From NCBI GenBank assembly GCA_041652555.1, contig JBAZHE010000005.1, positions 7,547 to 64,515 on the forward strand: a DNA stretch of 56,969 nucleotides, given 5' to 3'. The DNA is from Patescibacteria group bacterium (lineage in GTDB: Bacteria; Patescibacteriota; Patescibacteriia; Patescibacteriales; WJLG01). How positions within the stretch are numbered: the first letter of the stretch is position 1; every line of letters begins with the position of its first letter. A program made the position numbers and the translations under genes. Below are positions 26,386-29,063 of the stretch, piece by piece. A model generated the notes under the pieces. The model did not search any database, had not been told where the DNA came from, and worked only from the letters and a program-made list of their open reading frames with translations.

Positions 26386-26415
26386 AAAAAGTGTTTCTTC
26401 CGCCATTGACAGCTA

Positions 26416-26523: not shown

Positions 26524-27168
26524 ATGAGCCAAAAAACACCAAGCTCCGGACAAGCGCTGGAACTAGCCGGTATCGCTGTTAAAGCGATAGCTAGTGGAAT
26601 TAAAAATGGAAATCCGGATTTTGATCGGGTTCAGGGAATAGTTGGTAATCCCGGAGCCATTTATGATTTCTTCAGCAATTTGTTCGCTGAAAAATCAGAG
26701 AAGCCGACCTCATCGATTTTGAAACTTCTCTCCGCCAGTGAAAACATGACCATCGAATCTCTCGACGGCAAGGAATTCATTCATGGAGACAGAAAAGTTT
26801 TCAAGTCGTATATTGACGACGATTTCAAAAACTGGAAACTGAATCAGGCGAGCGAAGCTACCAAGGAAACTGCCGTGCAGGTGCATGAGCTGGTTGAAGA
26901 CGCGACTTTCGCAAAAATGTTTACTTCGCTTTCCGGCGACTTAGACAAATTATGCCTTACGCAACATCAGATTAAGAGATTTTGCGAATATCCCGGCCAG
27001 CTTAGCCAGAGTGGCGCCACGTTCTTCCTGTTCAAGCTGAATGGAGAATATTTCGTGGCTGACGTGGACGTGTACGACGATGGTCTCTCTGTCTTCGTCC
27101 GCCGCTTCGAGATCGACCCTCTCTGGTGTGCCGAGTATGGTCACCGGCTTGTCGTCCCGCAACTTTAG
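26524..27168 (+). CDS. DGR variable (target) protein, 214 aa, VR at the C-terminus
   Basis: ATG at 26524 preceded by AGGA. The C-terminal 38 codons form the VR. Visibly more GC-rich than its neighbours. The ORF is open from the TTG at 26416, but that stretch looks like a promoter. Confidence 0.8.
   Translation: MSQKTPSSGQALELAGIAVKAIASGIKNGNPDFDRVQGIVGNPGAIYDFFSNLFAEKSEKPTSSILKLLSASENMTIESLDGKEFIHGDRKVFKSYIDDDFKNWKLNQASEATKETAVQVHELVEDATFAKMFTSLSGDLDKLCLTQHQIKRFCEYPGQLSQSGATFFLFKLNGEYFVADVDVYDDGLSVFVRRFEIDPLWCAEYGHRLVVPQL
27050..27165 (+). repeat. DGR variable region (VR)
   Basis: Ungapped match to 27546-27661 (offset 496). The 14 mismatches all lie where the TR has A. The stop codon TAG (27166-27168) directly follows the repeat. 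Confidence 0.9.
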
Positions 27169-27238
27169 TTTCCTAGATCACTTGAACTTGGAAACTTTGT
27201 CCCTTGGATTCTTTGAACTTAGGTTTTAACCTTCGTTC

Positions 27239-27267
27239 TTGAATTCAAGGGATTTTTTTTGTATAAT
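27239..27267 (+). promoter_or_regulatory. candidate promoter for the TR-containing RNA
   Basis: TTGAAT (27239-27244) - 17 nt - TATAAT (27262-27267). Lies about 280 nt upstream of the TR on the same strand. Confidence 0.5.
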
Positions 27268-27545
27268 AAAGATGCAGTTTTGATTTGTTCGCCGGCTAAG
27301 GCTGGTGAGCCAAGATTGTTTGAAGATATTTTTGAGAGTTTTGCCGGTTACGGCTGGCAAGAGAGGAAAATATTTTTAATTCAAATAAACAAGCTAAAGT
27401 TGGTATGGCGCGCTGGCGGACTTTAAGGAGATAAAATTTTCCCGATGTCCCGAATAATTTTCAGCCGTTTCTTTCGCACTCGGCGTCAGGGGCGGCGGTG
27501 GTAAAGGGGCTGGCAACCAGTCTCTTGAAGAAGGCGCGCTATGCA

Positions 27546-27661
27546 ATTTCGTGGCTAACGTGAACGTGAACGACGATGGTCTCAATGTCAACGTCAACCG
27601 CTTCGAGAACGACAATCTCTGGAATGCCGAGTATGGTCACCGGCTTGTCGTCCCGCAACTT
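27546..27661 (+). repeat. DGR template region (TR)
   Basis: Reads FVANVNVNDDGLNVNVNRFENDNLWNAEYGHRLVVPQL, with nine AAY codons. Non-coding copy of the VR. Confidence 0.9.
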
Positions 27662-28047
27662 GGCTGTTCCTCCTTCGCTTGTTGCGAGGGAGTTTTCTTT
27701 TCCAAACCTTTTTTCCAGCCGCCAAGTATGCGGCCGACTTCATTAAGTTTTTCCGATAATTCTGCGTATCGCTCATTGGAAAGGCATTTATTTTCCCAAG
27801 CCAATTGAAAGAAAAATTTAACGCCATCAAGTTTGACAATAGCTGAACCCAGCTCAAGATATTTTTTTTCTTTGGGAAGGTAAATGGCCGTAAAAATATT
27901 TTCTAACATCCCCAAAAAGTATTCTTCAATTTTTCCGCCCAGATTATAGCGATGAGCTTTGGGAAAATCAGTAAGAATTTTAAACCACAGCGCATAGGTT
28001 TCTTTGGCTTTTGTCATCACCGTCGGAATGCTATAATAGGTAGCCAT
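27637..28047 (-). CDS. avd: Avd-like accessory variability determinant (four-helix-bundle protein)
   Basis: 136 aa. The C-terminal NEVGRILGGWKKGL closely resembles the EVGRILGSW segment I recall from Bordetella phage bAvd. Helical heptad pattern. The 3' end overlaps the TR by 25 nt on the opposite strand. Confidence 0.8.
   Translation of the reverse strand: MATYYSIPTVMTKAKETYALWFKILTDFPKAHRYNLGGKIEEYFLGMLENIFTAIYLPKEKKYLELGSAIVKLDGVKFFFQLAWENKCLSNERYAELSEKLNEVGRILGGWKKGLEKKTPSQQAKEEQPSCGTTSR
27670..27701 (+). terminator. hairpin plus U-tract immediately downstream of the TR
   Basis: ctccttcgc-ttgtt-gcgagggag (9 bp, one G-U that pairs only in the + strand RNA), then TTTTCTTTT. Starts 9 nt after the TR end. 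Confidence 0.55.
28029..28037 (+). promoter_or_regulatory. possible extended -10 (TGcTATAAT) upstream of the RT gene
   Basis: TGCTATAAT lies 22 nt upstream of the RT ATG. The same motif occurs at 23147 and 23247. It lies inside the avd 5' coding region on the other strand. Confidence 0.35.
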
Positions 28048-28058
28048 AAATTTATAGG

Positions 28059-29063
28059 ATGAAAAAATTTATAAAAAAATACGAAGAAATAATCACAGTT
28101 AATAAATTACTTTCCGCCTGGGAAGGTTTTCTGGCTGGAAAAAAACAGCGGAGCGATGTGGCGGTTTTCCAGAGCCGCCTAATGGATAATATTTTGGCGC
28201 TTTATCATGATTTAAAGAATAAAACTTATCTGCATGAAGAATATAAGGCGTTCAATATTTCCGACCCCAAGCCGCGCAATATCCATAAGGCGACAGTCCG
28301 CGATCGCTTGTTGCATCATCTGCTTTATCAAGAAACATATGATTTTTTTGACCGGCAGTTTATTTATGATTCATATTCTTGCCGCCTTAACAAGGGCACG
28401 CATCGGGCGATTCGCCGTTTTGCTGATTTTACCAGGAGTGTTTCGCGGAACAATCGGAAAACAGTTTGGGTTTTGAAATGCGATATCAGAAAATTTTTTG
28501 CTAGCGTTGACCACCAAATTTTAAAAAATATTTTAGCTAAATATATCGTTGACAAAGATTTGCTCTGGTTGTTCGGACAAGTAATTGACAGTTTTAACAC
28601 CGAAGGAAAACAGGGGATTGGTCTGCCACTTGGCAATTTAACTTCGCAATTGTTGGTTAATATTTATATGAATGGATTTGACCAATTTGTGAAGCGCGAT
28701 TTGAAAATAAAATATTACGCGCGTTACGCCGATGATTTTATTTTTTTAGATAAAGACAGAAATAGTTTAGTCACCATTTTTTTGCAGATAGATAAATTTT
28801 TAAAAAACACGCTTAAATTATTTTTACATCCTGATAAATGTTTTATTAAAACTTTGACATCGGGTGTTGATTTTTTAGGCTGGGTTCAGTTTTGCGGTTA
28901 TAGAGTTTTAAGAACTTCCACTAAAAAACGGGTGTTTAAAAGAATAGAGGGTGATTCGGATTCGTCGCCAATCATTGCCACTTACCTCGGCTTGCTTAAA
29001 CATGGAAATGGCCATAAACTTGGCGAGCGAATTATTAAGTATGAAGTAAACAAAATATTATGA
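28059..29063 (+). CDS. DGR-type reverse transcriptase
   Basis: 334 aa. RT motifs DIRKFFASVDH, LPLGNLTSQLLVNIYMNGFD (the (I/L)GxxxSQ DGR signature) and YARYADDFIF (YxDD). No maturase or endonuclease domains. Confidence 0.92.
   Translation: MKKFIKKYEEIITVNKLLSAWEGFLAGKKQRSDVAVFQSRLMDNILALYHDLKNKTYLHEEYKAFNISDPKPRNIHKATVRDRLLHHLLYQETYDFFDRQFIYDSYSCRLNKGTHRAIRRFADFTRSVSRNNRKTVWVLKCDIRKFFASVDHQILKNILAKYIVDKDLLWLFGQVIDSFNTEGKQGIGLPLGNLTSQLLVNIYMNGFDQFVKRDLKIKYYARYADDFIFLDKDRNSLVTIFLQIDKFLKNTLKLFLHPDKCFIKTLTSGVDFLGWVQFCGYRVLRTSTKKRVFKRIEGDSDSSPIIATYLGLLKHGNGHKLGERIIKYEVNKIL

Follow-up and report, generated by a model that had tools for sequence, protein, structure and literature searches.

The window analysed here is a stretch of 56,969 nucleotides from a Patescibacteria group bacterium (assembly GCA_041652555.1, contig JBAZHE010000005.1), and its positions 26,524 to 29,063 are occupied by what we regard with high confidence as a complete, recently active, chromosomal diversity-generating retroelement (DGR) of the Patescibacteria or candidate phyla radiation (CPR). 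Its parts are a target gene coding for a variable protein of 214 amino acids (26524..27168, + strand) that ends in a variable repeat (VR), a template repeat (TR), an avd gene on the opposite strand (27637..28047, - strand, 136 amino acids) and a reverse transcriptase (RT) gene (28059..29063, + strand, 334 amino acids), giving the layout target/VR(+)-TR(+)-avd(-)-RT(+). The avd and RT genes are placed head-to-head, with their start codons 11 nt apart. A sequence-only reading of the same DNA by a model had described it as an element with the signature of mutagenic retrohoming, and every component that it named was found to be present and passed its own test.

The VR (27050..27165, + strand) consists of the last 116 nt of the target gene and aligns without gaps to the TR (27546..27661, + strand) at an offset of 496; a base-by-base comparison and an independent repeat search revealed the same pair. 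The two copies differ at 14 positions, and the TR base is adenine in all 14. As the TR contains 28 adenines, the hypergeometric probability of 14 out of 14 mismatches falling on adenine sites is 9.9e-11, whereas the positions other than adenine are identical in the VR without exception (88/88). The TR contains nine AAY codons in the frame of the target gene, each of which is changed in the VR, at codon positions 1 and 2 only and without creating any stop, so that the encoded asparagines are changed to D, D, Y, S, F, R, I, P and C at residues 180, 182, 184, 189, 191, 193, 197, 199 and 202. The gapless alignment, the 14 adenine mismatches, the 88 identical positions and the nine codon changes had all been reported in the sequence-only reading; they were reproduced exactly, and a recheck for mismatches at positions other than adenine found zero. 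Its estimate of 15^9 peptide variants without stops (about 3.8e10) is also arithmetically right (3.84e10), because NNY codons encode 15 amino acids and no stop.

The last mismatch lies at 27128, after which the terminal 37 nt are identical, and the homology ends at 27165, directly 5' of the TAG stop codon, as had been proposed; at the other side a single extra base (27049) also matches. Neither a third copy of the repeat nor a further VR was found within the window. Regarding the adenines that remain unchanged, 10 lie outside positions 1 and 2 of AAY codons (among them that at 27546, which is off the codon grid) and 4 within AAY codons, which corrects the figure of nine unchanged non-AAY adenines given previously.

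The RT was matched by RVT_1 (6e-21) and phrog_1423 (1e-91), and its clade was assigned from the best-match scores among solved structures together with its motifs. By far its best solved relative is the DGR RT of a Bordetella phage (bRT; PDB 8ub7 to 8ube), with an E value of 8e-34 and 121 bits for 8ub7, whereas group II intron and retron RT structures reached around 1e-15 and at most 61 bits (27-61 bits for the retron RTs). Its LGNLTSQ motif aligns to IGSLTSQ of bRT and the YADD motif is present, in agreement with the [I/L/V]GxxxSQ of motif 4 and the YxDD that define the DGR clade. These results agree with the affinity to DGR RTs on which the first reading depended. An ordinary duplication of a gene 3' end beside an unrelated retron or group II intron RT, with an adenine bias arising by coincidence, would find some support in NCBIfam, whose first-ranked model for this protein is a group II intron RT/maturase; however, the score (130 bits) is far under the 300-bit cut-off of that model, and NCBIfam apparently has no DGR RT model. 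With a chance of about 1e-10 for 14 out of 14 mismatches on adenine, an adenine bias that recurs in dozens of independent loci, the match to bRT, and no group II intron or retron RNA detected with Rfam, this explanation is refuted and its probability is practically nil.

The Avd protein was recognised by three independent family libraries, two of which name it as the Avd of DGRs: Pfam bAvd (3.6e-14, 53.6 bits, over the curated cut-off of 40 bits), NCBIfam DivGenRetAVD (NF033474; 7.9e-20, 71.1 bits, under the 80-bit cut-off of the model) and PHROG phrog_3206, 'Avd protein of DGR' (3e-20). Avd is present in most DGRs, but not in all of them. The family-library and PDB matches thus agree with the previous claim that an Avd-like gene and an RT with LGNLTSQ and YADD motifs complete the cassette. 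The Avd domain ends near residue 114, and its final 22 residues plus the stop codon are read from the strand opposite to the terminal 25 nt of the TR and the first 60 nt beyond it, in such a way that the 3' tail of avd is antisense to a stem-loop that follows the TR. The gene keeps the same strand and position in around 40 related loci.

Evidence for recent activity was provided by a sister strain, represented by two contigs (L080 and L081), whose target protein is 93% identical to that of the window. Outside the VR the target genes of both strains differ at 5 of 526 nt, whereas 15 of 116 nt differ within the VR, 14 of them at positions that are adenine in the TR. By comparison, the TR differs at 1 of the 74 nt that could be compared. 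The fifteenth VR change (27090 T>C) is homologous to this sole TR change (27586 T>C), and the VR/TR differences of the sister strain itself are also at adenines in all cases (9/9). As the VR changes of the sister strain are at TR-adenine sites and the TR change is mirrored in the VR, sequence has passed from the TR into the VR, with mutagenesis at adenines, after the two strains separated. Judged from these sequences, the transfer is one-way, with a variable VR and a near-invariant TR, and it is the VR that varies between the two strains, as an active element requires. One of the 14 changed adenines (27080) lies outside the AAY codons. Therefore, the suggestion that the unchanged adenines reflect selection on scaffold residues could not be maintained, as a single sequence cannot show it and such an adenine was mutated in the sister strain.

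A decayed, inactive DGR, whose VR/TR differences would be fossils, was also considered. Decay does occur in this family, as five related loci (L021, L049, L077, L032 and L055) have weak, partial or degenerate matches (24-107 bits) to the RNA model described below and no avd or RT was detected within about 3.5 kb downstream of them. At the locus in the window, in contrast, the RT and Avd open reading frames are full length with intact motifs, the 88 positions other than adenine are all identical between TR and VR, and a strain with around 1% difference in flanking gene sequence has a VR changed at 14 TR-adenine positions and carrying a copied TR change. The fossil explanation is thus improbable.

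The similarity between the window and the sister strain starts abruptly at 26410, around 114 nt before the target start codon. Upstream of this point the sister strain (L080:1-860) has an M23-peptidase-like gene in place of the DD-carboxypeptidase gene of the window. The differing chromosomal contexts of the cassette suggest mobility or frequent rearrangement. The genes that surround the element in the window are housekeeping ones (aspS, scpA, scpB, the DD-carboxypeptidase gene, tpiA, tRNA genes and dnaE), and therefore the element is chromosomal and not phage-borne.

The target protein belongs to a family of at least 230 homologues from Patescibacteria, all unnamed, mostly of about 212 amino acids and without any Pfam domain. 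The family alignment begins at the ATG at 26524 and shows several unrelated helical modules of around 55 residues ahead of a conserved core, which in the window protein spans residues 62-214 approximately and was modelled by AlphaFold2 with a pLDDT of about 90. The C-terminal consensus of the family is FVAxVxVxSDGLxVxVxRFExDxVWxAExxxRVVVPQL, in which x marks hypervariable positions that correspond to the AAY codons. An alternating x-V-x-V pattern is seen on the predicted strands 175-184 and 187-194, with residues 180, 182 and 184 on one strand alternating with 189, 191 and 193 on the adjacent one, and 197, 199 and 202 in the next loop. If the model is right, this implies that the nine variable residues form one contiguous face of a C-terminal beta-hairpin and loop. 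The target thus resembles DGR proteins with a C-type lectin fold (Mtd, TvpA and the archaeal/CPR AvpA type) in having its VR at the extreme C terminus, in its AAY-encoded variable residues clustered on strands and a loop, and in its modular N-terminal part. Neither a signal peptide nor a membrane segment was recognised by eye, and the NCBIfam and PHROG searches gave nothing usable. A Pfam match to DUF7638 (E 0.0097) was discarded as noise, because only 1 of 31 family members was matched.

Two aspects weigh against the assignment of the locus as an active DGR. On the one hand, unlike the C-type-lectin-fold DGR proteins, the target had no match among PDB chains in a sequence-profile search and none with an E value below 0.1 in Foldseek searches of the PDB and of the viral models in BFVD. 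The resemblance to C-type lectins was faint (TM 0.25-0.28 when normalised by the query and 0.37-0.39 by the target), and in consequence this fold, although expected, is unconfirmed, being neither supported nor excluded by the searches. On the other hand, the reading of activity is taken from the comparison of two strains only.

DGRs are already recognised as common in ultra-small (CPR/Patescibacteria) bacteria, a lineage in which DGRs are probably more abundant than in any other group of organisms. A scan of species-representative genomes detected 79 related loci, nearly all from metagenome-assembled genomes (MAGs) of Patescibacteria and including groundwater MAGs from 2015-2016 such as GW2011_GWA1_40_21. 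The order target(+)-TR(+)-avd(-)-RT(+) was found in all of the approximately 40 contigs long enough to contain the whole cassette, some of them with a second target, and their VR/TR mismatches are almost all at TR adenines (14/14, 18/18 and 23/23, for example). Since the target-TR-(avd)-RT layout is the 'Architecture B3, TR-(avd)-RT' described in 90% of the CPR set of Wu et al. 2018 (PMC5758913), the cassette is, from its sequence, a further case of a catalogued CPR class. The corresponding 'DGR clade 2' of Roux et al. 2021 is restricted to Patescibacteria and is cellular, and CPR DGR targets generally have no recognisable domain or membrane anchor (PMC8144416). The cassette of the window shares with these elements its gene order, strands and cellular chromosomal location, and nothing essential distinguishes it from them at the cassette level. 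The CPR DGR literature surveyed contained no description of a structured RNA upstream of the TR.

Several other features of the related loci were recorded. A cassette whose target is 81% identical to that of the window (L082) sits between an MFS transporter gene and typA/bipA. The highest avd (250 bits) and RT (552 bits) scores against the window among the scanned genome loci were obtained with L079 (DATJQC010000114.1), which is labelled 'Candidatus Nanoarchaeia archaeon' and whose RNA has the same insertions as that of the window; the label suggests either mis-binning or a transfer between CPR bacteria and DPANN archaea. In automated MAG records, several more of the related loci are assigned to Gammaproteobacteria or Saccharibacteria. 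Runs of 8-10 G (+ strand) are found near the avd start, between the avd and RT starts, in L014, L016, L018, L023, L038, L040, L043, L052, L039 and L057, and just after the TR in L002/L003. The window has no such run, and several of them lie beside N runs in the assemblies; either phase-variable homopolymer tracts or sites that are difficult to assemble could explain them.

When the 380 nt between the VR and TR of the window were read side by side with the equivalent 330-400 nt of the related loci, a conserved layout was apparent, consisting of a terminator hairpin with a T run, a promoter and then a G+C-enriched stretch that reaches up to the TR. In the window the predicted terminator of the target gene (27201..27260, + strand; CCCTTGGATTC ... 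GAATTCAAGGG followed by T8) is conserved in the related loci, and the -35 box of the following promoter is located in its 3' arm. This putative promoter of the TR RNA (27239..27267, + strand) has a TTGAAT box, a 17-nt spacer and a TATAAT box with TG upstream (10/12 matches in the promoter scan). A -10-like hexamer was found at the equivalent place in 90 of 93 loci, and a run of at least five T before it in 74 of 93. Immediately after the VR there is another hairpin (27167..27196, + strand; AGTTTCC ... GGAAACT; -13.3 kcal/mol), present in many related loci but not in all and not GC-rich. It may correspond to the hairpin downstream of the initiation of mutagenic homing (IMH) site in the Bordetella phage BPP-1, although these features make for weak evidence.

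The stretch that follows this promoter contains a structured RNA of about 270 nt located 5' of the TR. The consensus obtained with RNAalifold from a 24-locus alignment has 64 pairs and -64.5 kcal/mol, and compensatory double changes were found in 51 of these pairs. Paired cells amounted to 94.1%, compared to 43-49% when partners were slid by 1-3 columns; the compensatory pairs fell to 11-22 in these slid controls, and none of 500 shuffles reached any of the observed pairing measures. The RNA begins with two hairpins, P1 (27274..27319, + strand) and P2 (27320..27379, + strand), as defined by RNAalifold and pair counts, whose tips have G.U, G-C and Y.G pairs closed by a UAAG or UACG-type tetraloop. 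Together their helices have compensatory changes in 30 of 40 pairs, with 92-96% of cells paired.

The third domain, P3 (27403..27544, + strand), is closed by a 12-bp helix (27403-27414 with 27533-27544) that ends 1-2 nt before the TR and has compensatory changes in 9 of its 12 pairs, with 97% of cells paired. In all 24 loci the TR-proximal strand of this helix forms a stronger pairing with its upstream partner than with any part of the 110 nt downstream. Enclosed by P3 are a short stem-loop, P3a (27418..27450, + strand; 4/4 pairs compensatory), the conserved single strand CGAAUAAUUUUCAG (27451..27464, + strand), a second stem-loop, P3b (27464..27496, + strand; 7/7 pairs compensatory), and a conserved GGUG. 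Compared to most of the relatives, the RNAs of the window and of L079 have two extra hairpins, GGAGAUAAAAUUUUCC inside P3a (27422-27446) and GGGGCUGGCAACCAGUCUC before the P3 3' strand (27505-27525), and such sites may mark solvent-exposed parts of the ribonucleoprotein.

On the other side of the TR, the terminator scan detected a stem-loop of 9 bp followed by a U run (27670..27702, + strand; CUCCUUCGC / GCGAGGGAG). A hairpin and at least four T after the TR were found in 87 of 93 loci, with covarying stems; by analogy with BPP-1 it may be the Avd-binding stem-loop and may serve as a terminator too. The antisense-avd stretch of around 360 nt from this stem-loop to the RT start has no conserved structure (consensus -2.6 kcal/mol), and no conserved duplex was found between sequences upstream and downstream of the TR. 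When 27100-28100 was searched with Rfam 15, both at the gathering threshold and at E <=10, no family matched, among them the RT-1 to RT-19 motifs and the group II intron and retron RNA families. The chance-level matches (CRISPR-DR58 on the hairpin after the VR, and some small RNAs) were rejected.

The distribution of the 5' RNA was analysed with R1, a covariance model built from the 24-locus alignment. R1 has exactly one match in the window (27268-27558, 180 bits) and one match each in 50 of 82 sources, including 25 loci that were not used to build the model; in the target-oriented loci all matches are on the target (+) strand, directly after the target gene. A motif pattern of the RNA matched at least 120 metagenome contigs, and R1 gave matches of 60-234 bits in 86 of the 100 that were tested with it, most of them with avd(-) and RT(+) downstream. 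The only viral contig matched by the pattern (L085) had no R1 match and was rejected as a chance hit. In L019 the target is followed by an intact match (230 bits), with no avd or RT detected within about 3.5 kb downstream. This locus and the five with weak matches mentioned above (L021, L032, L049, L055 and L077) may have lost, or be losing, the rest of their cassettes, or their targets may be served in trans.

The lower-scoring R1 matches correspond to DGRs of the same layout with another target family, whose proteins end in ...NGYANLFYV...RVFSxxN and whose mismatches are also restricted to adenines (for example 15/15, 17/17, 19/19 and 20/20). This second family is distantly similar, with the C terminus ...NGYANLFYVxxxVVxVxW...RxWxV..W..DD..W..GxRVFSxxN (L125, L168, L169, L170, L182, L108, L143 and L156), and L143 has two tandem VR-bearing repeats in a single open reading frame. 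In total, the 5' RNA domain was present in more than 130 DGR loci with different targets. As the RNA precedes the TRs of different target families, it is a component of the retroelement lineage and not of one target. That the 5' RNA exists and is associated with DGRs is near certain.

A possible role for this RNA is indicated by its pairing with the end of the TR. Between P2 and P3 there is an A-rich linker followed by AGUUG (27398-27402), which as part of AGUUGGU (AGTTGGT in the DNA, 27398-27404) is invariant in the 24 aligned loci (24/24). In the window the linker and AGUUG (27388..27402, + strand), proposed here as a primer strand, can form a helix of 13 pairs and -10.7 kcal/mol, named PT, with the TR-terminal CAACUU and the GGCUGUU that follows it (27656..27668, + strand). 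Among 72 non-redundant loci, the duplex of the linker with its own TR end had a mean of -6.26 kcal/mol, compared to -4.40 kcal/mol for non-cognate TR ends, and none of 2000 permutations was as low. In a fixed register, positions just past the invariant core pair more than in shuffled controls, with several pair types.

The complement of the invariant AGUUG is also found at the end of the VR, within CCGCAACT (27157..27164, + strand). The sequence-only reading had regarded the terminal 36 bp or so as an IMH-like boundary; the identity of this segment held (37 nt), whereas its extent did not, as the candidate cis element is better defined as the terminal CCGCAACT. Of 92 VR-end windows, 71 finish with CAACT, mostly as part of CCGCAACTG; it lies in codon phase 0 in 59 loci and in phases 1 and 2 in 6 loci each (PQL in 59, PAT in 6 and (S)RN-stop in 6). 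Its presence in all three codon phases implies that it is kept as nucleotides and not as peptide. Opposite the last G of AGUUG, the TR carries A and not C in around half of the loci, whereas the VR keeps the C; therefore, this part of the VR is not a plain copy of the TR, and its behaviour is that of an IMH/IMH* pair. In the sister strain there is a one-base insertion in this motif (L080:1600-1612, equivalent to window 27157-27165; CCGCAAGCTT vs. CCGCAACTT), and the resulting frameshift lengthens the protein, which then ends in ...PQALVS. This insertion may be an artefact of assembly or genuine damage to the proposed homing boundary.

The RNA of BPP-1 provides the reference for these elements. 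All its functional parts are in the spacer 3' of the TR, starting with an Avd-binding stem-loop (Sp3-33) and a primer strand (Sp47-56) that pairs with TR117-129, where four pairs beside the active site are essential. These are followed by the priming A56, by G57, C58 and the Sp strand of a 12-bp stop duplex, whose partner is just upstream of the TR, and finally by a short stem-loop, A-minor adenosines, a 12-nt single-stranded 'thumb ring' and a long RT-binding stem-loop (Handa et al., bioRxiv 10.1101/2023.10.23.563531). In the same work, stem-loops just downstream of the TR were reported in 207 of 278 DGRs, with a survey window of 40 nt upstream and 100 nt downstream of the TR; because of these limits, an arrangement with the RNA upstream would have escaped it.

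The element of the window shares with BPP-1 the adenine-specific TR-to-VR pattern, the homologous RT and Avd, a stem-loop directly after the TR, a duplex of around 12 bp beside the TR 5' end and a duplex of around 10-13 bp on the TR 3' end that is conserved in the 4-5 pairs closest to the template. Both elements also have a duplex strand, a short stem-loop, an A-rich single strand and a longer stem-loop in this order. In contrast to BPP-1, avd has the reverse orientation and runs into the TR end. The structured RNA lies 5' of the TR, with both strands of the stop-like duplex on that side; the putative primer strand likewise precedes the template, and the nucleotide presumed to prime would be G rather than A. 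In addition, the VR and TR of the window show no IMH/IMH* difference, the element is cellular and the target is not Mtd-like. A functional spacer 3' of the TR of the BPP-1 type was thus not found, as only one stem-loop is conserved downstream and the covarying structure is upstream. From 5' to 3' the RNA of the window contains a primer-like strand, the duplex 5' strand, a short stem-loop, an A-rich single strand, a second stem-loop, the duplex 3' strand, the TR and a stem-loop, which would be the BPP-1 order cut after the Avd stem-loop and rejoined, i.e. a circular permutation.

Primer-bearing RNA located 5' of the template is known from the retron non-coding RNA (msr-msd), in which a helix between the primer-adjacent strand and the template 3' flank positions an internal nucleotide for priming. 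The likeness to the proposed RNA is one of topology only, with the primer 5' of the template. Unlike in retrons, the RT of the window is of the DGR clade; none of the retron RNA families gave a match, and the product would go to mutagenic homing into the VR instead of being kept as msDNA.

Most probably, the TR-containing transcript of the element is reverse-transcribed by the RT-Avd complex with random misincorporation opposite template adenines, and the complementary DNA (cDNA) then replaces the VR, rewriting the nine AAY-encoded residues 180-202 of the target. In the permuted model, the AGUUG paired with the TR-terminal CAACU would act as the primer strand, with copying starting at G27655 and ending at the 12-bp P3 helix next to the 5' end of the TR, as the stop duplex. 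The RT would be held by elements within P3, and Avd by the post-TR stem-loop. The CAACT at the VR end would serve as an IMH-like boundary that matches the RNA primer segment still attached to the cDNA. By analogy, we lean slightly towards the 5' RNA domain playing the role of the 3' spacer of BPP-1 in a permuted order. For the wider proposal, that the CPR DGR lineage uses a circularly permuted, retron-like RNA with primer, stop duplex and RT-binding elements 5' and only the Avd stem-loop 3', we put the chances at about even. Such a permuted arrangement was not described in the literature surveyed or in Rfam 15.

Some of the observations weigh against this permuted RNA. Fixed-register pairing in helix PT is found in only 49-65% of cells at covarying positions, because bulges shift the register, so its support is moderate. 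The A for C replacement at the TR end in around half of the loci removes a pair opposite AGUUG, and in a subgroup with the TR end GAAAAUG only about 4 of 6 PT pairs form. Besides, the repeat in the window contains no difference of the IMH vs. IMH* kind, the ends of the TR RNA transcript are predicted ones, and the mapping onto BPP-1 is drawn from order, spacing and covariation between RNAs without sequence similarity.

The 5' RNA could, alternatively, be a regulatory leader or small RNA, controlling for example read-through into the RT gene or acting against the avd mRNA, with the priming elements located elsewhere, such as in the antisense-avd stretch, in the manner of the Bordetella phage. 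The expression signals give this explanation some ground. No promoter-like site was found by the promoter scan between 27700 and 28058, the base before the RT start, and RT expression is for that reason probably achieved by read-through from the TR RNA promoter, with the post-TR stem-loop and U run resembling an attenuator before the RT gene. The nearest minus-strand promoter-like site for avd (28555-28527) is about 480 nt inside the RT gene, and the TR RNA (+) and the avd mRNA (-) are transcribed towards each other, with an overlap of at least 60 nt (27637-27702). Expression of RT and Avd may thus be coupled to, or antagonised by, transcription of the TR RNA. However, P3 lies directly against the TR at a constant distance, covariation connects the linker and AGUUG with the TR 3' end and its flank, and the RNA domain accompanies the DGR whatever its target family, whereas the antisense-avd region has neither conserved structure nor a conserved duplex to the 35 nt upstream of the TR. 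A purely regulatory role is therefore rather unlikely, and the priming RNA located 5' of the TR is the reading that we prefer.

Taken as a DGR, the locus is a further member, well supported as recently active, of a class that is abundant in Patescibacteria. Three features are new with respect to the literature surveyed, namely a 5' RNA domain found throughout the lineage, the pairing of this domain with the TR end and the frame-independent motif at the VR end. The model of DGR reverse transcription is based on one phage element, with the functional RNA downstream of the template, and in a whole lineage this arrangement appears here to be reversed. If true, this would explain how CPR DGRs can carry an inverted avd directly after the TR, and it would provide a sequence-defined rule for the homing stop. 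R1 would then be a compact RNA model for finding such DGRs and their TRs in metagenomes without protein searches, and the minimal RNA for reconstituting a CPR DGR, as required for protein-diversification tools, would be defined.

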